A DNA stretch of 32,000 bases from the NCBI GenBank assembly GCA_028279805.1, contig JANQMZ010000007.1, positions 420,001 through 452,000 of the forward strand, read 5' to 3'. This document shows, piece by piece, positions 10,371 through 22,385 of the stretch. The notes under the pieces are model-generated. The model was not told the DNA's origin. It did no database searches and saw nothing but the letters and a program-made list of their open reading frames with translations. The position numbers and the translations under genes were made by a program. The number at the start of each line of letters is the position of its first letter. Position 1 is the stretch's first letter. The stretch comes from an archaeon. GTDB taxonomy: Archaea > Iainarchaeota > Iainarchaeia > Iainarchaeales > JANQMZ01.

Positions 10371-10442
10371 GCCCTGGTAGTCTAGTGGTTAGGATACGGC
10401 CCTGTCGAGGCTGTGACTCGGGTTCGAATCCCGGCCAGGGCG
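10371..10442 (+). tRNA. tRNA-Asp (anticodon GUC at 10404-10406), no encoded CCA
   Basis: Hand-folded cloverleaf: acceptor GCCCUGG/CCAGGGC, D stem GUCU/GGAU, anticodon stem CGGCC/GGCUG, loop CUGUCGA, T arm UCGGG-UUCGAAU-CCCGG, discriminator G. The acceptor and T arm closely match archaeal tRNA-Asp sequences as I remember them. Confidence 0.9.
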
Positions 10443-10464
10443 CTTTAAAATAATGGTGATGTGA

Positions 10465-12225: not shown

Positions 12226-13413
12226 ATGGTGGTTATGGATGAGAGAATAGAAGAACATTTTTCAACATTGGACTTAGATTTAAGAAAAACTAGATTTTCT
12301 AGATTTATCGACCAAAAAGTCACTCCAGACGTTTTATCTTTCATTGCAGATTGTATAATGGCACATACTGGAGGAAATGAAGAAAAAAAATTTAGAGTAA
12401 AGGACATATGGAACTCCGAATACTTCAAAAAAAACGTAATTCAAATATATAGCAAGCCGTCACCAGAAAATGAAACGGCGACACACGAATATGACAAGTT
12501 TATTGGACAACCTATGAGACTTTTGAACTACGGAAAAATAATAGAATCAGAAAAAAAAGGGAACGCTAATTTTTACTGGTGCTCAAATCCAGAAATACTC
12601 AACTATATATCAATGAATGAAACATATTCATTTAATTTTCTTTATTTATATCTAAAAAAAGTTTTAGATGATAGCGGATTTTTACAACATATAGAAAGAT
12701 ATAAGGAAAATGATAACCCGCAAAATTTTAGAGAATTGAAAAATAGGTTTCAAATATTTATTAGAGGGAACACAAAAATAAATACAGATGTTGAGATAAA
12801 TAGGATCTTTCCAAAAGTGCTTAACATATTTTCTGTAAAATGGAACATACGAGGAAGTAAAAAGGGAAGAATTTCCAGACACAGATTCAATTTTTCAGAT
12901 TTAACTTACAATGAAATAAATTGGAGAGATATAAAAAAAGACAAGAGAACTACTAGAACAGAGGCACAAAATAGAGAATTGGAAAAAGTAAAAAAATATG
13001 AAAAGTATACTGTTGAAAAAGCCAAAAGGATAATAAGAAAAAAATATAGAGAAACAGAAATAAAAGATCGGTGGGCTGGAGGAAAAGCAACACAAGTGCA
13101 CCATATTTTTCCGGAACACGAATATCCACAATTTGCAGCTTATCTTGAAAACCTAATAAAACTAACACCAGACCAGCATTTCACGAAAGCACACCCAAAC
13201 AATAGTACAAAAGATATAGATAAAACATATCAACTTGATTTGGTTATAGCTAAAATATACAGCATAGAAGATTCTTTATCAAAAAAAGAAACATATTACC
13301 ATAAAGATAGACTCATAGAACTATTGAACGAAACATTAGGAATCGAAATGTCTCAAATAACCTCCTTTGATGAAATCAGAAAAAAAATAAAAGAAATTCA
13401 ACTAAGTTTCTAA
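12226..13413 (+). CDS. HNH (beta-beta-alpha-Me) endonuclease, putative restriction subunit
   Basis: 395-aa ORF. ATQVHHIFPEHEYPQFAAYLENLIKLTPDQHFTKAH gives the HH...N...H spacing of HNH nucleases. It is convergent with the methyltransferase gene and overlaps its 3' end by 12 nt. Confidence 0.6.
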   Translation: MVVMDERIEEHFSTLDLDLRKTRFSRFIDQKVTPDVLSFIADCIMAHTGGNEEKKFRVKDIWNSEYFKKNVIQIYSKPSPENETATHEYDKFIGQPMRLLNYGKIIESEKKGNANFYWCSNPEILNYISMNETYSFNFLYLYLKKVLDDSGFLQHIERYKENDNPQNFRELKNRFQIFIRGNTKINTDVEINRIFPKVLNIFSVKWNIRGSKKGRISRHRFNFSDLTYNEINWRDIKKDKRTTRTEAQNRELEKVKKYEKYTVEKAKRIIRKKYRETEIKDRWAGGKATQVHHIFPEHEYPQFAAYLENLIKLTPDQHFTKAHPNNSTKDIDKTYQLDLVIAKIYSIEDSLSKKETYYHKDRLIELLNETLGIEMSQITSFDEIRKKIKEIQLSF

Positions 13414-15924
13414 TTTTCCGAAAAAATAAATTGAATTGCTATCGATGTTCATAGATCTAGTGCTTCTGTTTCTAGCAACGCTATAAAATTCTCTGAACTC
13501 AGAAGTGCTATAATAATTCAATGTTTTCTCATCAATTTCTGTTCCATTTTTTGGTTGAGCAATAGCCACTGAACCATCACAAATAGCGTTTTCCGGCATA
13601 AAACATGCTCTGGGATAATAAGTAAGATTTGGTATTAAAACAGAATTTCTAGAATTTAAAAATTTTTTAACCGTTAAGGAAGATGCCTCTCTATTACTGA
13701 TATATTTATCGTAACCGGAAATATCTTTTATTTTGTTATTCCCAATATTTCTAGATTTTAAAACTCTATATTTTCCTTTGTCGTAAAGAATTTTATTTGT
13801 AATCTGTCTATCTCTAAAAACTTTGAATATGTCAAATTTCATCTTTTTACTTATTTTATTAAAAAAATTGTTCCTGTAAATTAACCAATAAGGAAAAATA
13901 TCTGAAGCCATCTCCAATTGCTCTAAAAATCTTGCGTTTTTAGTTACATAAGACTCTATTTTTACCATATTCTTGGGGGTTCTTCTATTTCTTTTCAAGA
14001 TGAACCCAATAGTTTCTATCTTAACATCAAAAGCTTTTTCGCCAAAATCAACAATTTTTACAATGTTATATTGATTCATTAATTCCCTTGTTTTATTAAA
14101 TTCAGGAGTAGACAATAAACTTTTTGGGACAATAAATGAAATAAAATCGCCCAATGTTATTGCTCTTTCAATGAAAAAAGAAAAAAGATTATTTGTATCT
14201 TTGTTATTTTTCCCTCGCTTGTAATGTTTTAACAATTTTTTGTTGTTAACAACTTTTTTAAACGGAGGATTCCCCAATATAACATCATATTTAAAATTGC
14301 CATTATAAAAAATAAAATCAGCGTTTATATATTTTATTTTGAAATTATTTGGGATTCTTAATTTTTTTACTAAAATTTTTAAGAGGGTTATTGATTTTTT
14401 GTCTATATCTATAACATCTAAACTTACTTTTTTATTGTTTTTATATTTAGCTATAAGTGAGGGTAAAAAATTTCCTGCACCCACTGCGGGTTCAAGTAAG
14501 TGAATCTCTTTCTTGTTCTTAAAATCTGGTAAATCCTTAACAAGAGAAAAACAAATATTTGAGGGGGTATAGTAAGCGGAATTTTTTAATCTTTTTGCAT
14601 TAGAAAGTTCGGCGATCTTAGAAAGTGTATTGTATGAATATTTTTTTAGGTTTGTATTAATAAATGACTTAAGCTTACTGTGAGAGTCTAATTTGTTTTT
14701 TTCTATTATTTTTATTATTTTAGGTTTTGTTAACTCTTGATCTTTCAGTGCCCCTCTTATATTTCCAGCTATTTTTCTAAAAATAATTGTTGGCACAGCT
14801 TCTCCCACACACCTCCTTATGTTCAACTCATTTTTCTTTAAAAAAAATCTTTTCTTGTCCAAAGACTTATGATTGAGCACGTCAAAAGGAATTTTTGACC
14901 ATTTAAAGTTCCTTGGAATTGTCATTAGTTTCATGATTTCTCTAATTGAAAAAACTCTGTGGTCTCTTGGATGTATAGTCCACTGACTTGCTAAAATATC
15001 ATTTCTAGTATGTATACAATAAGCTGGTTTATCCCAGTAACATCTTTTGTATTTATCACCACTTTTGTTTTTGTTAAACACTATTTTATCATTTTTTATT
15101 CTGTGAGGAATTCTAGCACGAGCTCTATTCTCAAAGGCAGATTGCCCTTCTTTCAAATTTTCTATCCATTTAAGCATATATTTTGGAAATTTTCTATAGG
15201 AATGATAAATGTCCGAATAATCTATTTCGCCCATTTTTTTTAAAGGTTTTAATTTTCCAATGGTTTGTCTAACGGTTTTTTCTTTTTCTTTTGATGGAAA
15301 AAGCTCTAATGGGGAAATATCTATTAAATCTTTTCTAACTCCAATTACAAGAGTTCTTGTTCTTTGAGAAGGGCTTCCATAGTCCTTAAAATTTATAACT
15401 TCAGAATGAACATTATAATTTGTGAGATTTGACTCTATTGCTTCTTTTATTGACTTTAGATTTCCGTCAGAGTCAGTGCATTTTGTATTTAAAAAAGTCC
15501 TAACATTCTCAAACAAAAATATTTTTGGATTAATTTTTTTAGTTACTATTATGGATTCAACTACCAATGAATTTCTTTTTAACTCGTTTTTTTTATTATG
15601 ATTCGCTACAGACATTCCCTGACAAGGAGGCGTAGCCACAACAACATCAATTTCTTTTAAGCCGGTCTTTCTTTTCCAATGCTCTGTTTCTTTGTAAACT
15701 TTTTTTTTGATTTTTTCTTGACTCAAGTCTCCTAAAATATATCCTGAATCATGCTCGCATTTATTATTATATTTTTGAATATTGAGTCTTTCTTCAGAAA
15801 CTTCGTTTGTAGCTACACAGTTAAATTCTGTAAGATTGAACCCATTACATCCCACACCAGCACCACTGAAAAGGCTTACATAAGAAAGTGTCTGGCCTTT
15901 GCTTGAATCTTTATGGCGAGGCAT
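13402..15924 (-). CDS. bifunctional DNA methyltransferase: N-terminal C5-cytosine MTase fused to a C-terminal gamma-class N6-adenine MTase
   Basis: m5C motifs in order: LFSGAGVG (I), TPPCQGMS (IV), FENV (VI), QRTRTLVIG (VIII), GEAVP (X). After a Lys-rich linker come the m6A motifs YYTP, LEPAVGAGNFL (I) and GNPPF (IV). The track starts at TTG 15945; I prefer ATG 15924 (MPRHKD), which is preceded by AGGGAG. Confidence 0.85.
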   Translation of the reverse strand: MPRHKDSSKGQTLSYVSLFSGAGVGCNGFNLTEFNCVATNEVSEERLNIQKYNNKCEHDSGYILGDLSQEKIKKKVYKETEHWKRKTGLKEIDVVVATPPCQGMSVANHNKKNELKRNSLVVESIIVTKKINPKIFLFENVRTFLNTKCTDSDGNLKSIKEAIESNLTNYNVHSEVINFKDYGSPSQRTRTLVIGVRKDLIDISPLELFPSKEKEKTVRQTIGKLKPLKKMGEIDYSDIYHSYRKFPKYMLKWIENLKEGQSAFENRARARIPHRIKNDKIVFNKNKSGDKYKRCYWDKPAYCIHTRNDILASQWTIHPRDHRVFSIREIMKLMTIPRNFKWSKIPFDVLNHKSLDKKRFFLKKNELNIRRCVGEAVPTIIFRKIAGNIRGALKDQELTKPKIIKIIEKNKLDSHSKLKSFINTNLKKYSYNTLSKIAELSNAKRLKNSAYYTPSNICFSLVKDLPDFKNKKEIHLLEPAVGAGNFLPSLIAKYKNNKKVSLDVIDIDKKSITLLKILVKKLRIPNNFKIKYINADFIFYNGNFKYDVILGNPPFKKVVNNKKLLKHYKRGKNNKDTNNLFSFFIERAITLGDFISFIVPKSLLSTPEFNKTRELMNQYNIVKIVDFGEKAFDVKIETIGFILKRNRRTPKNMVKIESYVTKNARFLEQLEMASDIFPYWLIYRNNFFNKISKKMKFDIFKVFRDRQITNKILYDKGKYRVLKSRNIGNNKIKDISGYDKYISNREASSLTVKKFLNSRNSVLIPNLTYYPRACFMPENAICDGSVAIAQPKNGTEIDEKTLNYYSTSEFREFYSVARNRSTRSMNIDSNSIYFFGKLET

Positions 15925-15953
15925 TTTTTCATTCTCCCTTTCCAAAGTGAACT

Positions 15954-16057: not shown

Positions 16058-16270
16058 TTACTGCGAATTTTTACACTGACATGGATTTCCGCCAGACATC
16101 ATTCCGGAAACCCAGTTATGCACTTTCACTTTTCCACATTTTTTACAACTTGCGTTTTTTACAGCTCTGGCGGTTCTTTCGTTCCATTTTTCCATTATTT
16201 TGTCTTCTTCTCTTCTTGAATTCAAAAATTCTTTTAATTCAATTATTTCAGTTTTAGTTAATTCAGTCAT
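16058..16270 (-). CDS. 70-aa protein with a C-terminal CxxC...CxC zinc-ribbon-like motif
   Basis: Track ORF MTELTKTEIIELKEFLNSRREEDKIMEKWNERTARAVKNASCKKCGKVKVHNWVSGMMSGGNPCQCKNSQ. It is co-oriented with the flanking defence genes. No family recognised. Confidence 0.45.
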   Translation of the reverse strand: MTELTKTEIIELKEFLNSRREEDKIMEKWNERTARAVKNASCKKCGKVKVHNWVSGMMSGGNPCQCKNSQ

Positions 16271-16388: not shown

Positions 16389-16798
16389 TTAATCCAAAGG
16401 CTTTCTATATTTTTCAATATCTGTGGACATTTTATTATTAAATCTAACATGCTTTGTTAGTGTGTGCTTAAATTTATCAATATCTGATTTTTTAAAAATT
16501 GCTAACTTTGGCTTTTTAGTCTCTGTGTTAAAATGAATAACATACAAATGTGTTGGACGGAACTTTAGACCTGAGGGGGTTTCAATAAATTCATATATAT
16601 ACGCATCAGGAATTCCTTTGTCCGATTCTGAAGTTTTAACCTCAATTAATCTAGGATCTTCTTTTTTTTTAAATCAACACTTATTATATCCATTCCTGAA
16701 TATTTTCTATTGCTCTGAACATCTGTTGGGAATCGACCATTAGCTGTTTCATATTTAATAACAATATCAATTCCTTTTTGTGCTAAATTTTTAGTCAT
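16389..16798 (-). pseudogene. DUF3883-like PD-(D/E)xK nuclease gene interrupted by a -1 frameshift in an A9 homopolymer (T9 on the plus strand, 16662-16670)
   Basis: Own translation. From ATG 16798: MTKNLAQKGIDIVIKYETANGRFPTDVQSNRKYSGMDIISVDLKKK, then a stop after 48 codons. Adding one A restores ...EDPRLIEVKTSESDKGIPDAYIYEFIETPSGLKFRPTHLYVIHFNTETKKPKLAIFKKSDIDKFKHTLTKHVRFNNKMSTDIEKYRKPLD, with the stop at 16389. The span is 410 nt, which is 137 codons minus 1 nt. G-x-DI...IEVK is the DUF3883/restriction-endonuclease-like signature. Confidence 0.65.
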
Positions 16799-16835: not shown

Positions 16836-19472
16836 CTATTTTTCAACCTGCTCAACCATACTCCTCCAAAGCACTTCATCTTTCTTATTTTCAATCAAAT
16901 CTTCTAAGAATGTTTCCGGATTGTTTTTCCATTGCAAAAATTGGTTTATTTTGGTTGAGGCTGTTGTGAACGCTGATTGGGATGGCTGTCTGTCATCCAG
17001 TTTTGATGAAATTGTGCCGTCATTGATTCTTTTTCTTAAACCAATGTAGCCGATGGCTACTTTTATTTTATCCAAGGGAATGTTTTTTGATTGAGATAAC
17101 ATTCTTTTGTATAATTCTAATTGTTGCCTGTGATTGGATGAATAATCAGCACTTTTATCTGTTTTCCAGTCCACTATTAGATATTCTTCTCCGTTGGAAA
17201 AAACACTGTCAATTTTTCCGGTAAAATTAATTTCATCTTTTGTGTCAACAATTTTTGAAATTGATAAGGTTATTGTGGTTTCAACTTCTTCAACATTTGG
17301 ATAAGTTTTTTTAATTTCTTTAATGAACATCTGAACATTTTTAATAAATGGTTCAGTTTCTTTGGTTTTTTCAAATTTTTGGTTTTTTAAAATTTTTTCA
17401 GCAGCATTATGAACATCTGAGCCAAGAGTTGAAGCTTTAAACGGAATTGTTTGAATTTTTAAAATCCTGTTAACAAAATAATCATAAGAACTTTTAGGCA
17501 AAGCACTATAAGAAAGGCGATTAACGCCGGCAAAATGTTTTTTAACAAAATCTTTTAACCAGGGTTTACTATTTTCTAATTCTTGCCGGGCTTCTTTGAA
17601 TTGTTTATTTACAAATAAATTAAATGCTCTTTTTTGCAATTCGTTAAAGCTTTCAGGTGATTCTGTTTCAAATTGTAATTCTTGTTTTTCTGAAAAATCA
17701 TTCAAAAAATCAGCTGGTTTGCCAGTTAAAATGTAAAGATTTTTTTTGGCTCTGGTAAATGCAACAAAGTTTGAACGCAGTGTTTCTTCTTCCAGTTCTT
17801 CTTCTGCGTTAATTTTTTTGGATTTTAAAATTGCTTCAACAACAGCATCCTGAAAACTTGCACTATTTGAAGATTTTGAAGGAGCAAAAATAACTGTTTC
17901 AAATTCTTTTCCTTTTGCTTTATGAATTGTTGTTAGAATGATTTTTTGTTCAATGTCTGATTCATTTGCAAAAAGGTCAGCTGATTCTAAATAAGCAGTA
18001 AAATTGGCTAAATCCTTGTTTTCTAATAAGGAAATGGCTTCATTGCAGGAACTTTGAACATTCTGGGCAGCCAGCAAATATTCTTCTCCATAAGTTAAAG
18101 CAACCGGTATGATTTTTTCTTTAAATAACAAATTGATATCCTCAATGCTTGAAATTGATTCTCTTAATTGTTTGAATTCCGAGCTTTTTGCAAAAATATC
18201 ATTCAATGTTAAATTATAGTTTGAGGATAATTCAAATGCTTCATGCAAGGAAATGGGAAAAAAGCTGGTAAACATTGCGTTTTTAACAAATTCAATGTTG
18301 TTTGAAAAAATTCCTCGCAGAAAAGTAATAATGTTGTTTTTTGCTTCATTTGAAGCTGAAAAATAAGTGGAAGAATGTTCAATGTTGTGTTTTTCAAATT
18401 CTTTTGAAATTTCCCTTATTTGATTATTTGTTCTGGCAATGACAGCCACTTGGTTTGAATTTTTTAACAATTTTTGAGTTAATGCTCTAATTGCCTGGTT
18501 TTGATTATCCTGCACATCAAAAATAACCGGTTTTGGTCCTTTTTCTGCTGTTTTGTTTTCAAGGTTTTCTAATGCTTTGATATATTGTTCTTCTTTTGTT
18601 TTTTTAGAAAAATCTTCTTTTGCAAAATTTAAAATTTCGTTTGAACTTCTAAAATTTTCAGTTAAAACAAATTCTTTTGAGTTGTTGAATTTTTCAAAAT
18701 TTAAAATGGAGCCTCCTTGAAAACCAAAAATAGCCTGCTTTTGGTCTCCAACCGCAACAAAGTTTTCACAGGATTTCAAGGCAATATCAGCTTCCAGTTT
18801 GTTTACATCCTGCAGTTCGTCAACTAGAACATATTTGAATTTTTTAACATTGTCTAATTCCAAAAATTTTATTAGCAAATCATTGTAATCAAATCCCTTG
18901 TTTGCCTTAATTGTTTCATAATGCTGAAAAATTTTAACAAATTCTTCAAGAAATTGTTCAAGTTCTTCTTTTGAATAATTTTTAAAATCTTCCAAAAAAG
19001 TTTTTGAATCTTGCAAATCAATTGAATCGGGCATGACGCCAAAACTTTTCAAATACCTAATCAGGCTTTCTATTTTTGGAACAATTGTATTAATCAAATA
19101 TTCATCGCCGTAGTTTAAAACTTCATTTTGTTTCAAATAATCATAAATTGAATAACGCAAAAGATTTGAGGAAATAATATTATCATTGTCAATGTTGTCC
19201 AATGCAAACGAATGAAAGGTAAAAACCTGCAATTTTCCCAAATCAATTTCAACTTTTTCATCATTTAAAATTTTAATAATTCGGTTTTCCATTTCAGCAC
19301 GGGCTTTATTGGTAAAAGTCAGGCACAAAATTTCTTCCGGTTTCAAGCCTTTTTTGATTAAATCCACATATTTAAACGCTAATAAGAGGGTTTTGCCGGT
19401 GCCTGGGTTAGCAATAATCAAAGCATTTCCATCATGCTTAATAATTTCTTGCTTTTCTTTATTTGGTTTCAT
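16836..19472 (-). CDS. UvrD/PcrA-type SF1 helicase fused to a C-terminal RecB-family PD-(D/E)xK nuclease
   Basis: 878-aa ORF. Helicase motifs: ANPGTGKT, VDELQD, GDQKQAIFGFQGG, ENFRSS, TIHKAKGKEFETVIF, FTRAKKNLYI. C-terminal nuclease motifs: GKIDSVF, LIVDWKTDK, QQLELYKRML. There is no Cys cluster, so it is not Cas4/AddB-like in the Fe-S sense. Confidence 0.85.
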   Translation of the reverse strand: MKPNKEKQEIIKHDGNALIIANPGTGKTLLLAFKYVDLIKKGLKPEEILCLTFTNKARAEMENRIIKILNDEKVEIDLGKLQVFTFHSFALDNIDNDNIISSNLLRYSIYDYLKQNEVLNYGDEYLINTIVPKIESLIRYLKSFGVMPDSIDLQDSKTFLEDFKNYSKEELEQFLEEFVKIFQHYETIKANKGFDYNDLLIKFLELDNVKKFKYVLVDELQDVNKLEADIALKSCENFVAVGDQKQAIFGFQGGSILNFEKFNNSKEFVLTENFRSSNEILNFAKEDFSKKTKEEQYIKALENLENKTAEKGPKPVIFDVQDNQNQAIRALTQKLLKNSNQVAVIARTNNQIREISKEFEKHNIEHSSTYFSASNEAKNNIITFLRGIFSNNIEFVKNAMFTSFFPISLHEAFELSSNYNLTLNDIFAKSSEFKQLRESISSIEDINLLFKEKIIPVALTYGEEYLLAAQNVQSSCNEAISLLENKDLANFTAYLESADLFANESDIEQKIILTTIHKAKGKEFETVIFAPSKSSNSASFQDAVVEAILKSKKINAEEELEEETLRSNFVAFTRAKKNLYILTGKPADFLNDFSEKQELQFETESPESFNELQKRAFNLFVNKQFKEARQELENSKPWLKDFVKKHFAGVNRLSYSALPKSSYDYFVNRILKIQTIPFKASTLGSDVHNAAEKILKNQKFEKTKETEPFIKNVQMFIKEIKKTYPNVEEVETTITLSISKIVDTKDEINFTGKIDSVFSNGEEYLIVDWKTDKSADYSSNHRQQLELYKRMLSQSKNIPLDKIKVAIGYIGLRKRINDGTISSKLDDRQPSQSAFTTASTKINQFLQWKNNPETFLEDLIENKKDEVLWRSMVEQVEK

Positions 19473-19479
19473 TTGAAAA

Positions 19480-21204
19480 TCACGATGGTTTTGTCAGCTC
19501 TGCTATTTTTTCTATAATTAGATCTGCTCTTTGTTCGATAAAAGCATCAAAATTATCTTTCCAAATGGCAGAATTTTTCTCATAAGGAGGAATTAGATTT
19601 GACTTTAGGTCTTCTTCATAATGCTTATTCTTTTGTTTTACTTTTTTTTCAAAATAAGATGAAGGATTGTCATTCCCGATTATTTGATTGGATTTTTTTG
19701 GCAGAAAACAGATATTAACAACACAATCTACTTTATCTTTGTTAGAATTTATAACCGCATTAGATTTTTTGGGAAAAATGTGATGGAGTTCGCTTTTTTT
19801 AGGATTTATGAAAGAATCATAAATTGGAATCTCAGTGTGATTTGTGATGTCAAATGGTTTTTGACTAGCCATTAAACATAGAAGTGATCTGCAAAAACCA
19901 CTATTCAAATTTAATTTTTCGCTTAACAATGCCTCTCTATCACTAAAATCTTTTTCAAGTTTAAAGTTAAAATCAGATGCTTTAGTTAGAAATTTTTTGA
20001 AAAGGTTACAATCATTTTTTATTTCTTCATTAGTTGCCCCCAAGTAATCTGCATTAAACGATTTTGTCCAAAACCAATTTTCAATAGCTTTTTTTATGTT
20101 ATCAGATTGTGGATTGTCTTCTAACAAATAAAAGAAATATGCTAGGGAAACTATCATTGGAGAATATGGTAATATTTTTGGAGAAGCAACTCCAAGTTTG
20201 TTTGTTAAAAAAAGTATTGCTTCTTTAAGAGAATTTGATGCTTTATCCCAGTTGTCTTCAAGATCTTTTGACTTTAGTTTAAATAAATCGGATTCCTTGC
20301 ACGCTCCAAATCTAATTAAAGATATTAGTCTTATAATTGAAGTTTCATCCAAATCATCATAATTTAGCTTACCCAATCCTGTTGTTTCATCATATAATTG
20401 TTCTAAATTGTCTCTCAAATAAAAATCATCAGTGAAAGTGTTAGCTGTTATTAAATCAATAGTTGAAAGTTTCTTTCCACGCATGTTTACTCTGGTAAAT
20501 AATTCACACACTTCTTCTATTGGGACATTTTGTAAACTTATTATGGACAAAGAGTAATTTGAACTTAATCTTTCATTCACTTCATGATATAATGTTGCAA
20601 TAGATTTGTCCATATCTCTTAGTTTTAGAAGTAAATCCATGTCCGGTTTTATTAACTTACCCACTTCAACAAAATATTCCTTTTCTTCAGGATTTTGTTT
20701 TTGAATTTTTTGGAATTCTTTTTCAGTAAAAAATAAGTCAATATCTTTCTTTTTTTCTAAATCCTCCTCTTCAATTTCCTTTTTAGCTGCTTTTAGAGAA
20801 AAATATATTGTGAAATCAATTGGGTTTTTTCTATTTTGAGGTGTTTTTTTGCCGCCCAAACTAGAAACGATCAAAGAAGTTAATCTTTGTTGTCCATCTA
20901 AAACATAGTTGAAAAAAGAACCAGTACGGTCTTGACTAATTGATCTTACAAATTCAAAATTATCAACAATTTGCCGGTTATCAGGAAGTTTTTGTTCGCT
21001 TTCCCAAATTATAAGGCTGCCTATAGGATAATGCTTATATATGCTGTCCCAAAGAGCTTTGATGTCTTTTGGATCCCAAACAAAATGCCTTTGGAATTTA
21101 GGAATAGTGTAATCATATTCAACTTTTGAATTATTATCAGGATTATCTGGAATCATTTCAGAAAGTTTTCTTGAAAACACTGTTATCTTGCGTTTTTTAT
21201 ACAT
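19480..21204 (-). CDS. DUF262 (ParB-like NTPase) plus DUF1524 (His-Me finger nuclease) protein, GmrSD/BrxU/SspE-type architecture
   Basis: N-terminal IPKFQRHFVWDPKDIKALWDSI and DGQQRLTSL. C-terminal ELHHIFPKKS...NICFLPKKSNQIIGN. The track starts at TTG 21222; I prefer ATG 21204 (MYKKRK), preceded by AGGATGTGA. It lies 4 nt after the upstream stop. Confidence 0.8.
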   Translation of the reverse strand: MYKKRKITVFSRKLSEMIPDNPDNNSKVEYDYTIPKFQRHFVWDPKDIKALWDSIYKHYPIGSLIIWESEQKLPDNRQIVDNFEFVRSISQDRTGSFFNYVLDGQQRLTSLIVSSLGGKKTPQNRKNPIDFTIYFSLKAAKKEIEEEDLEKKKDIDLFFTEKEFQKIQKQNPEEKEYFVEVGKLIKPDMDLLLKLRDMDKSIATLYHEVNERLSSNYSLSIISLQNVPIEEVCELFTRVNMRGKKLSTIDLITANTFTDDFYLRDNLEQLYDETTGLGKLNYDDLDETSIIRLISLIRFGACKESDLFKLKSKDLEDNWDKASNSLKEAILFLTNKLGVASPKILPYSPMIVSLAYFFYLLEDNPQSDNIKKAIENWFWTKSFNADYLGATNEEIKNDCNLFKKFLTKASDFNFKLEKDFSDREALLSEKLNLNSGFCRSLLCLMASQKPFDITNHTEIPIYDSFINPKKSELHHIFPKKSNAVINSNKDKVDCVVNICFLPKKSNQIIGNDNPSSYFEKKVKQKNKHYEEDLKSNLIPPYEKNSAIWKDNFDAFIEQRADLIIEKIAELTKPS

Positions 21205-21208
21205 CAAT

Positions 21209-21799
21209 TCACATCCTTGCAATTTTTCCTGCGTCGGTTAGCTTTAATCCGTCTTTTTCTTCCAGGAGGCCTTTGTGTTTTAATTCTTTTACGTTCCGAT
21301 AAAGCATTGCACGGCTTTGTTTCAAGATTCCTGCTAATTTTGACAGATTTGGTGTTGATTCAATGTTTTCCAGTATTTGCAGTTGTGATTCGCTTAAATC
21401 AAATGACAATATTGGCAAGGTTATTATTTGGTTTTCATCAGCAGGGCAATAATAAATGTTTTTGATTTTCTTAGACCGGGAATAAGAGCCAAATAATAAT
21501 CCTAATGCTTGTGTTTTTTTGCTTGGTGTGATGTTTACAAAAATTTCATCGTCTTTTGGAAGAACATCAATAATGTTGACGCATTCTTTTGCAATTTTAA
21601 CAATGTCATACAATTCAATTTTTCTTTGCTTTACTTCAAGAACATTTCCAAAGCTTTCAACAATTGAATCAATTGTTTTTTGTTGGGTTTTATTAGGCTT
21701 TTTGTCCACAAGCAAAAAAATCCTGTCAATTCCAAGCTTTGTTGTAAGCAAGACAATTGAATCGCTTGAATAAGTTGTTGTTATTAGTACCTTAGCCAT
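21209..21799 (-). CDS. Csa3-like regulator: N-terminal CARF-like Rossmann domain plus C-terminal winged HTH
   Basis: 196 aa from ATG 21799 (AGAGG upstream). Alternating strand/helix segments (KVLITTTYSSDSIVLL, RIFLLVD, EIFVNITPSKKTQALGLLFG, IKNIYYCP) align by eye with the Sulfolobus Csa3 N-domain. The C-terminal LSESQLQILENIES...NLSKLAGILKQSRAMLYRNVKELKHKGLLEEKDG is a MarR/Csa3-type wHTH. Confidence 0.55.
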   Translation of the reverse strand: MAKVLITTTYSSDSIVLLTTKLGIDRIFLLVDKKPNKTQQKTIDSIVESFGNVLEVKQRKIELYDIVKIAKECVNIIDVLPKDDEIFVNITPSKKTQALGLLFGSYSRSKKIKNIYYCPADENQIITLPILSFDLSESQLQILENIESTPNLSKLAGILKQSRAMLYRNVKELKHKGLLEEKDGLKLTDAGKIARM

Positions 21800-21885
21800 T
21801 TGAAGCCTCTTTATAATAAAAACAGCCAAAATTTAAATAGTTTACTAATAATGCAATTATTGTAATGAAAAAGAGAATTGTATAC

Positions 21886-21904
21886 TATAAACGATACGTT
21901 TATA
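21886..21904. promoter_or_regulatory. 19-bp palindrome TATAAACG-ATA-CGTTTATA in the divergent promoter region
   Basis: Read directly from the sequence: perfect 8-bp arms with a 3-nt spacer. It overlaps the TATA-like box about 25 nt upstream of ATG 21927 (plus) and lies about 90 nt upstream of ATG 21799 (minus). Confidence 0.55.
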
Positions 21905-21926: not shown

Positions 21927-22385
21927 ATGTTCGGGAATTTGTGGAAAAGAATGAAACCTAGCAGAAAAGTTTGGGAAAAAATGAAAAAGCTTGTTGAATG
22001 GGGGGGTTTTAAAGAAATGAAATTAAGCAAAGAAAAAGAGGAAGAGGTTGATACTTTGATTGAATGGAATGCGATTATGTTTAGTAATCCAGCAGGCGTT
22101 GTGAAAATAAATGACATGATGGAGAAAGCGCCTGCAAAAACAACTGACATGGATTTGTTTGTTCTTGCAAAAATTTTTGAAACAATGGAAGAGGAATTAA
22201 TTTATTCAAAAAACTTGGTGTCCAAACTGATTGGCCTTGGAAGCAAAACAAAGCTTTCAAAAAAGCTTGAAAAACAAGCTGGTAATTTCAAAAAAAAATA
22301 CATGCAAAGCATAATTGGAGATGCAAACACAAATAAATATTTGAGAAAATACTTTGAGTTCCGGCTTCAGAACAATTTGTTGTGA
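21927..22385 (+). CDS. hypothetical protein
   Basis: 152-aa ORF, apparently leaderless (TATA-like TTTATATAT about 25 nt upstream). No family recognised. Confidence 0.5.
   Translation: MFGNLWKRMKPSRKVWEKMKKLVEWGGFKEMKLSKEKEEEVDTLIEWNAIMFSNPAGVVKINDMMEKAPAKTTDMDLFVLAKIFETMEEELIYSKNLVSKLIGLGSKTKLSKKLEKQAGNFKKKYMQSIIGDANTNKYLRKYFEFRLQNNLL

Follow-up and report, generated by a model that had tools for sequence, protein, structure and literature searches.

A Csa3-family CARF regulator heads a candidate defence operon with a BrxU/GmrSD-type enzyme and a UvrD-RecB helicase-nuclease in a DPANN archaeon

Almost all that is understood of CARF domains concerns their role as receptors for cyclic oligoadenylates made by Cas10. 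We analysed a stretch of 32,000 nucleotides (nt) of archaeal DNA (GenBank assembly GCA_028279805.1, contig JANQMZ010000007.1, positions 420,001 to 452,000 of the forward strand; hereafter the window), in which a CARF protein with a domain of the winged helix-turn-helix (wHTH) type heads an operon with two nuclease genes that are not cas genes (16836-21799, minus strand). The regulator belongs to the Csa3 family, and its relatives in other DPANN archaea head operons whose further genes vary from locus to locus. The component families, and the idea of CARF regulators linked to non-CRISPR defence, are already known. Every CARF family has members without a link to CRISPR, and the RtcR-like CARF-AAA+-HTH regulators adjoin restriction-modification (R-M) systems and were proposed to sense nucleotides derived from infection (Makarova et al. 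2014, PMC4012209). These are a precedent for a CARF transcription factor beside non-CRISPR restriction genes, but they are bacterial sigma-54 AAA+ activators of another CARF family and not archaeal proteins with a Csa3-type wHTH domain.

Csa3 of Saccharolobus solfataricus (Sso1445) and Csa3a and Csa3b of S. islandicus share with the window regulator a CARF domain joined to a MarR-like wHTH domain within about 200 amino acids (aa), and equivalents of the motifs that contact cyclic tetra-adenylate (cA4). They differ from it in sequence, Sso Csa3 being ~18% identical, and in context. CRISPR-cas genes were absent within 10 kb of the regulator in the window and in 79 of the 80 related loci obtained by a scan of species-representative genomes, the regulator heading operons of non-Cas nucleases instead. 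The CAPPa motif of Sulfolobales (TCCC-N8-GGGA) is also different from the candidate operators found here (TCTAY-N6-RTAKA or GTATC-N6-AGTAKA). HFX_2341 of Haloferax mediterranei (PF19810) provided the best Pfam match of the N-terminal domain of the regulator; it is a Csa3-like global regulator that is also present in species without CRISPR-Cas (PMC11434293). It has been described as a global repressor, acting on nutrient transport genes and cas genes, and not as the head gene of nuclease operons. The PADLOC model CARF3 shows that the subfamily studied here has already been catalogued, and no paper in which the DPANN subfamily is described as heading nuclease or defence operons of variable content was found in a literature search that did not include the CARF classification of Makarova et al. 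2020.

The operon consisted of three open reading frames (ORFs) on the minus strand. Gene 1 (21209-21799, 196 aa), at the head, encodes the Csa3-family CARF-wHTH transcription factor. Gene 2 (19480-21204, 574 aa) encodes a BrxU/GmrSD-family type IV restriction endonuclease with a DUF262 NTPase domain and a likely C-terminal HNH-like domain, and gene 3 (16836-19472, 878 aa) encodes a UvrD/PcrA-type superfamily 1 (SF1) helicase fused to a C-terminal RecB-family PD-(D/E)XK nuclease, with an AddA/AdnB-like architecture. A preliminary description of the locus, made from the letters of the window, had given this layout correctly, with gaps of 4 nt between genes 1 and 2 and 7 nt between genes 2 and 3. 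It had also placed a ribosome-binding site for gene 2 within the end of gene 1, and an AGGA-type purine stretch is indeed present within the 3' end of that gene. Alignment of homologues favoured the ATG at 21799 (M-A-K-V-L...) over an upstream TTG as the start of gene 1. A Shine-Dalgarno sequence comparable to that of gene 2 was not visible before gene 3, which points to translational coupling as the likelier link there.

Gene 1 matched the NCBIfam Csa3 model TIGR01884 with 72.7 bits (curated cutoff 60.2) and the PADLOC model CARF3--CARF from end to end (3e-61); the CasR and Csa3 models of PADLOC matched as well. Its Pfam matches were HFX_2341_N (1.3e-11) and CARF_Card1 (3e-5). An AlphaFold2 model, built with an alignment of 32 homologues as input, had a mean predicted local distance difference test (pLDDT) value of 92.4 and comprised an alpha/beta domain of six strands and, after it, three helices (137-145, 152-159 and 163-175) and a beta-hairpin (179-187). 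For the wHTH domain, the profile matched MarR-family AdcR/ZitR and Lrs14. As shown by a Foldseek comparison of the model with the Protein Data Bank (PDB), the best structural matches were those to S. solfataricus Csa3, both with cA4 and without it (6wxq, 2wte, 6w11), at E ~5e-10 over ~210 aligned columns and the full length of the protein. Behind these came Crn1, Can2, Cam1, Csm6 and Card1, all of them CARF proteins, the Crn1 ring nucleases with template modelling (TM) scores of 0.65-0.70. The Csa3-like CARF domain and MarR/Csa3-type wHTH that had been proposed for gene 1 by eye are thus supported by family models and by structure, and a fold other than CARF did not appear among the top matches.

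The CARF pocket was conserved in the family. Residues T8, Y10, D84, N89, T91, K95 and T96 were invariant or nearly so among the 32 homologues, and we compared the pocket motifs by eye with those quoted for Csa3, where T-h-G-F-(N/D)-E, following beta1, and L-x2-G-h-R, following beta4, hold cA4 (PMC8699464). The aromatic Y10 of the family stands in for F10 of Csa3, which stacks on adenine. At one position of the pocket motifs the window regulator has Ser, where both the family consensus and Csa3 have Gly. Position 11, which aligns with the catalytic Ser of Crn1, was variable among the homologues (S, G, L, N or R), and the recognition helix SRAMLYRN was nearly invariant. Since the pocket is conserved, the most probable cue for the regulator is a ligand of the nucleotide type, whether cA4-like or a different signal of infection or damage.

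Database searches returned 277 relatives of the regulator with 45-65% identity, and all the named ones were from DPANN lineages (Woesearchaeota, Nanoarchaeota, Aenigmarchaeota, Micrarchaeota and Diapherotrites). Downstream sequence was available in 72 loci, and in 55 of them the next gene was co-directional with the regulator; 44 of these 55 genes began within 20 nt of it, often with overlaps of 4 nt. All-against-all clustering of ORFs revealed no conserved synteny among the 80 loci, and genes 2 and 3 were the only other genes of the window that recurred. The following genes, which we refer to as cargo, were of many kinds. The Pfam tally of 105 cargo proteins gave PDDEXK_1 (10), Bro-N (10), UvrD helicase (7), DUF2779 (6), Schlafen-AlbA_2 with HATPase_c_4 (5), GmrSD_N (4), YhcG (3) and NucS-like proteins (2), and ORF6N, HD, Fic-like, type I R-M and type III R-M genes were also found after the regulator. 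About half of the genes that follow the regulator had no Pfam match. Full-length PADLOC matches of cargo proteins included PDC-S13 (Bro-N), PDC-S05 (ORF6N), PDC-S02 (NucS-like), OLD/GajA and type IIG R-M. Several cargo genes match untested PDC candidate families of PADLOC, and the cargo as a whole is a list of candidate defence genes. The types of cargo were scattered over a neighbour-joining tree built from the regulators and swapped between close relatives. What stays constant among DPANN archaea is that the regulator comes first in the operon, and the cargo is variable.

A CRISPR array was found in one of the 93 loci checked for arrays. In this Micrarchaeota metagenome-assembled genome (MAG; L022:31-9803) the array and a complete type I-B operon (Cas6, a 644-aa protein without a match, Cas7, Cas5, Cas3, Cas4 and Cas1) are divergent from a member of the CARF-wHTH family. 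This is the classic context of Csa3; it ties the regulator family to genuine Csa3 and is exceptional for the family. A scan of viral contigs with the regulator profile gave a single match, in a giant-virus bin, so the family is not typically viral.

Other features recurred near the regulator. A protein of ~490 aa with two AAA+ domains (PADLOC IetA-like, 9e-33) was encoded divergently just upstream of it in about 16 of the 80 loci (for example L026:7616-9097 and L090:3722-5179) and is absent from the window. Two paralogous CARF-wHTH genes with different cargo were present in the same MAG, JAHIUF01 (L053 and L071). Small proteins of the NTP_transf_2/Polbeta type (~180-200 aa), probably parts of MNT-HEPN toxin-antitoxin pairs, were encoded near the islands at L051:14327-14884 and in five other loci, and in L081, L091 and L092.

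To define a possible operator, the regions upstream of the regulator were compared with 295 control intergenic regions from elsewhere in these loci. Of 77 such upstream regions, 44 contained a 16-bp palindrome, TCTAY-N6-RTAKA (for example those of L046, L020, L043 and L065), compared with 5 of the 295 controls. An element resembling a transcription factor B recognition element (BRE) and TATA box, GAAAGnTTTATAAA, was found at the same place in the relatives and usually abutted the palindrome. In the window, the TATA-box-like element TATTTAAA (21832-21839, minus strand) lies 33-40 nt upstream of the ATG of gene 1 and, as read from the sequence, is the presumed promoter of the operon. A variant, GTATC-N6-AGTAKA, which shares its right half with the family-wide palindrome, was present in three of the 77 upstream regions, those of the window, L002 and L030, and in none of the 295 controls. 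The corresponding candidate operator of the window, GTATCGTTTATAGTATA (21881-21897, minus strand), is located ~82-98 nt upstream of the ATG. Together with the nearly invariant recognition helix, the common upstream palindrome would fit autoregulation of the regulator through one operator type.

A different palindrome, at 21886-21904, had been singled out in the preliminary description as a possible target for the regulator. It exists, and the clade element that overlaps its right arm is conserved; the palindrome itself is not conserved in relatives. We also rejected it as statistically special, as it is one of ~13 distinct perfect palindromes with 8-bp arms in the window, compared with ~7 in shuffled sequences. 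Its left arm may be the TATA-like element of a divergent gene at 21927. A perfect palindrome of 22 bp, TTATATCGTATATACGATATAA, lies between genes at 668-689; it and the palindrome at 21886-21904 have an ACGATA/TATCGT core in common, maybe by chance.

The protein of gene 2 matched GmrSD_N of Pfam (1.9e-30) and, over its full length, two PADLOC models, PDC-M55C (2e-46) and HEC-05 (5e-41), the latter being BrxU (bioRxiv 10.1101/2024.01.29.577857). A profile of 32 homologues aligned with BrxU (PDB 7P9K) at E 1.8e-39 over the DUF262 half, and weakly (12.9 bits) but collinear and in register with the HNH motif of the BrxU C-terminal domain. DGQQR103-107, HH474-475, N497 and N506 were invariant in the family alignment, the last three in register with DHIYP...N...N of BrxU. 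The Pfam model DUF1524 was not called on gene 2, and for this reason we regard the DUF1524-like His-Me/HNH nuclease domain at its C terminus as likely, not proven. Of the two domains that had been predicted for this gene, DUF262 was therefore confirmed, and the DUF1524-like one is represented by an invariant motif. Gene 2 has in common with BrxU/HEC-05/GmrSD the DUF262 domain with its LWDS/DGQQR NTPase motif, a long linker and the C-terminal HNH-like motif, and differs in that this motif reads HHIFP...N...N, against DHIYP in BrxU, the acidic residue before the catalytic His being a His. Its setting is also different: it is not found within BREX, Hma or type I R-M, it is placed behind a CARF regulator, and it coexists with a resident methyltransferase for 5-methylcytosine and N6-methyladenine (m5C/m6A). 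Other components of PDC-M55 were not evident, as no PDC-M55 model occurred among the 25 PADLOC matches of gene 1 or the best 25 of the 35 matches of gene 3. No description of PDC-M55 was found in the literature searched.

Gene 3 matched UvrD-helicase (6e-42), UvrD_C (8e-19) and PDDEXK_1 (1e-11) of Pfam, and the closest solved structures were PcrA, UvrD, Rep, AddA, RecB, AdnB and GajB. Walker A, DELQD, D755, DWKT768-771 and QLxxY784-788 were invariant among 18 homologues, in which a conserved Cys cluster was absent. Pfam and the alignment thus agree with the full set of UvrD motifs and the RecB-family nuclease without a Cys cluster that had been read from the sequence. Relatives of gene 3 numbered 582 and were found across DPANN phyla with a fixed length of ~880 aa and 50-62% identity. 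As in AddA, AdnB and RecB, an SF1 motor of the UvrD/PcrA type is joined to a RecB-family nuclease motif at the C terminus (D...DWKT...QLxxY), but the protein is shorter and has no AddB, AdnA or RecC partner; no second ORF of the helicase-nuclease kind that could be such a partner adjoined gene 3 in the window or in 12 related loci. The PADLOC models of GajB matched its motor. GajB of Gabija has no nuclease domain, whereas gene 3 has one, and no GajA/OLD partner was found in the window. An assignment of gene 3 as the GajB half of a Gabija-like pair was rejected, as an OLD homologue was seen in L002 only.

The preliminary description had proposed the three genes as one system. The exact order of regulator, GmrSD-like gene and UvrD-nuclease was found in one of the 80 related loci, that of a Diapherotrites MAG (L002), with ~50-56% protein identity to the window and unrelated flanks. 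There an ATPase-TOPRIM nuclease of the OLD/GajA type comes after the UvrD-nuclease and makes up a Gabija-like pair with it, and a type IIG R-M gene is next (L002:6271-11788). In L012, L014 and L065 a GmrSD-like gene followed the regulator without the helicase-nuclease, and in L063 (directly), L013, L025 and L066 the helicase-nuclease followed the regulator without a GmrSD gene. A GmrSD homologue of 55% identity had neither partner and lay beside type I R-M and AbiEii genes. Seen from the side of gene 3, a regulator homologue was present within 10 kb in four of six loci (L087, L088, L090 and L092) and absent within this distance in L089 and L091. All six loci were situated among R-M, AIPR or RadC and other defence genes, and in one of them (L087) the UvrD-nuclease occurred with both a DUF262 gene and a CARF homologue. 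A metagenome scan with gene 3 yielded two loci only. The results indicate that the two enzymes, each found without the other and sometimes without the regulator, are independent modules, often but not always under the regulator. The proposal of a three-gene system is only partly supported, as the three genes are not a conserved, co-dependent unit.

The run headed by the regulator homologue of L090 (L090:5785-18416) comprised 8-9 co-directional, tightly spaced genes: CARF-wHTH, a 174-aa ORF, AIPR, HD, a 227-aa ORF, the UvrD-nuclease, an MmeI-type R-M gene and a second UvrD helicase. An integrase gene lies ~1 kb past this run, which suggests that the regulator cassette can sit on a mobile island. 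At L092:6876-12661 a 242-aa HFX_2341_N protein is encoded divergently from a 747-aa protein with a weak Piwi-domain match (3e-5, below the cutoff), and the UvrD-nuclease follows directly; this may be a pairing of an Argonaute with a helicase-nuclease.

Starting from what was observed directly, namely the folds and families, the intact catalytic motifs, the way the operon is laid out, the recurrence of the regulator as first gene and the operator motif, we consider it fairly probable that the locus is a defence-island operon under a ligand-sensing Csa3-family factor, whose cargo enzymes are interchangeable and not subunits of one machine. From these features we infer DNA binding at the operator, the direction of regulation, ligand gating, the defence function and the substrates of the enzymes. 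The regulator would bind the conserved operator just upstream of its own BRE/TATA element and would control a polycistronic mRNA that encodes itself and the two enzymes. Judged by homology, the BrxU/GmrSD-type enzyme would be an NTP-dependent HNH endonuclease that cuts base-modified DNA of invaders, and the UvrD/RecB-type enzyme, by analogy with AddA, AdnB and RecB, would unwind and degrade DNA from ends or breaks. The CARF pocket would couple this control to a nucleotide-type signal, of which no producer is visible in the window.

A number of points weigh against a ligand-gated defence operon. DNA binding by Csa3 in vitro was reported to be non-specific and independent of cA4 (PMC8699464), which leaves control of transcription by a ligand unproven for the model protein itself, and the haloarchaeal relative HFX_2341 is a global regulator (PMC11434293). 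The family-wide palindrome was absent from the window promoter even when one mismatch was allowed, and its total in the window was at chance level; the clade variant of the operator is based on three sequences. Gene calls in the related loci were simple longest-ORF calls. Finally, the fixed length of gene 3 and its 50-62% identity across DPANN phyla would also fit a role in DNA repair. In such a repair or recombination regulon, not antiviral in nature, a Csa3a-like factor would switch on RecB/Cas4-like nucleases and the UvrD helicase-nuclease after DNA damage. The cargo consists mostly of RecB/Cas4-like PD-(D/E)XK nucleases, DUF2779 and NucS-like proteins and UvrD helicases, the UvrD-nuclease is widespread in DPANN archaea at constant length, and Csa3a activates DNA-repair genes in Sulfolobus according to work cited in PMC8844856. 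We nevertheless regard this explanation as unlikely: the cargo is patchily distributed and is exchanged among close relatives, it accompanies R-M, AIPR, Bro-N/ORF6N, OLD and Schlafen genes, which are typical of defence islands, gene 2 is a type IV restriction enzyme, and the region is a low-GC island.

The regulator might also be a housekeeping factor like HFX_2341, or a ring nuclease of the Crn1 type, that borders an insertion hotspot and does not control the cargo. This would account for the highly variable flanks without conserved synteny, and is in line with the global role of HFX_2341, which is also present in species without CRISPR, and with the CARF and wHTH domains of the Crn1 ring nucleases SSO1393 and Sis0811 (TM 0.65-0.70). 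The next gene, however, was within 20 nt in 44 of 72 loci, often with 4-nt overlaps that indicate operon coupling, the position of the Crn1 catalytic Ser is not conserved in the family, and both the recognition helix and an operator beside the BRE/TATA element are; a bystander at a hotspot is therefore distinctly unlikely. The least likely account of those weighed is that the three proteins form one co-dependent, signal-gated system, in which a second messenger activates the regulator and cleavage by the GmrSD-like enzyme feeds the helicase-nuclease. The gaps of 4 and 7 nt, the identical order in L002 despite unrelated flanks and the joint occurrence of the three parts in L087 are what such a system would predict. 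Against it stand the occurrence of the triad in 2 of 81 loci, the window included, the loci in which either enzyme accompanies the regulator without the other, the 55%-identical GmrSD homologue that stands alone beside type I R-M, and the fact that BrxU and HEC-05 act as single genes. A bolder form of the preferred reading, a defence operon under a ligand-sensing factor, is that in DPANN archaea the Csa3-type CARF-wHTH protein has been uncoupled from CRISPR-Cas and, gated by a nucleotide ligand not made by Cas10, acts as the master switch of interchangeable innate-defence cassettes. The ligand might come from an undiscovered host synthase, from a virus-derived metabolite or from nucleic-acid breakdown. 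We put this forward tentatively and hold it to be rather doubtful as a whole.

The three-gene account in the preliminary description stopped short of the rest of the defence island, where a type II R-M system adjoins the operon. G+C content was 28-31% in the region of ~11-22 kb, against 33-36% in the flanks, where housekeeping genes are found (glutamate dehydrogenase, BacA, an amino-acid permease and peroxiredoxin). On the best reading the locus is part of a low-GC defence island of ~10 kb that extends from the type II R-M genes to the three-gene operon. The methyltransferase of this system (13402-15945, minus strand, 847 aa) is a fused m5C and m6A DNA methyltransferase with matches to DNA_methylase (2e-40) and Eco57I (5e-14) of Pfam, a full-length match to the PADLOC model MTase_II PDLC03277 (3.7e-229) and a weak match to the Alw26I/Eco31I/Esp3I family; it likely has its own promoter. 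Convergent with it is a type II restriction endonuclease (12226-13413, plus strand; PADLOC REase_II PDLC03488, 2e-104). The R-M pair (12226-15945) lies 900 nt from the operon that holds the type IV GmrSD-like enzyme. A modification-dependent nuclease that shares an island with an m5C/m6A methyltransferase raises the question of self-cleavage, and transcriptional gating is a plausible safeguard against cleavage of the host's own methylated DNA.

Between the R-M pair and the operon lie two small genes on the minus strand. One, upstream of the methyltransferase, is a Cys-rich, zinc-ribbon-like ORF of 70 aa (16058-16270) with weak matches only. The other (16390-16798, from three-frame translation) is a small PD-(D/E)XK-like gene of the NOV_C/DUF3883 type, 37 nt downstream of the operon, with one frameshift in an A-run near 16660-16670. 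After repair of the frame, its 136-aa product matched PF13020 NOV_C (DUF3883) with 27.4 bits (cutoff 22.1). The frameshift could reflect a pseudogene, a sequencing or assembly error, or slippage. The frameshifted DUF3883-like gene noticed earlier is thus real, but its suggested place as a fourth member of the triad is not upheld, since in L002 an OLD nuclease follows instead. As had been stated for the window, CRISPR and related genes were not seen: it contained no CRISPR-like repeat array, and no cas gene, Cas10 or CD-NTase was matched among the ~25 of its ~39 ORFs scanned. The sole Rfam match in the window was a tRNA-Asp (10371-10443), and no att-like repeat bounding an integrated element was found around it.

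A conserved receptor of the Csa3 type whose gene, in these archaea with tiny genomes, hardly ever lies near CRISPR-Cas poses the questions of what its pocket binds and what makes the ligand. If the ligand is indeed not a product of Cas10, this would be a CRISPR-independent pathway of CARF signalling. DPANN archaea have been reported to possess few defence systems that can be recognised, which may be because the systems they have are unknown ones (PMC12259885), and the genes that follow the regulator are therefore a ready-made list of candidates. If the bolder reading is true, the regulator would be a 'bait' gene for finding defence genes in lineages in which few can be detected.

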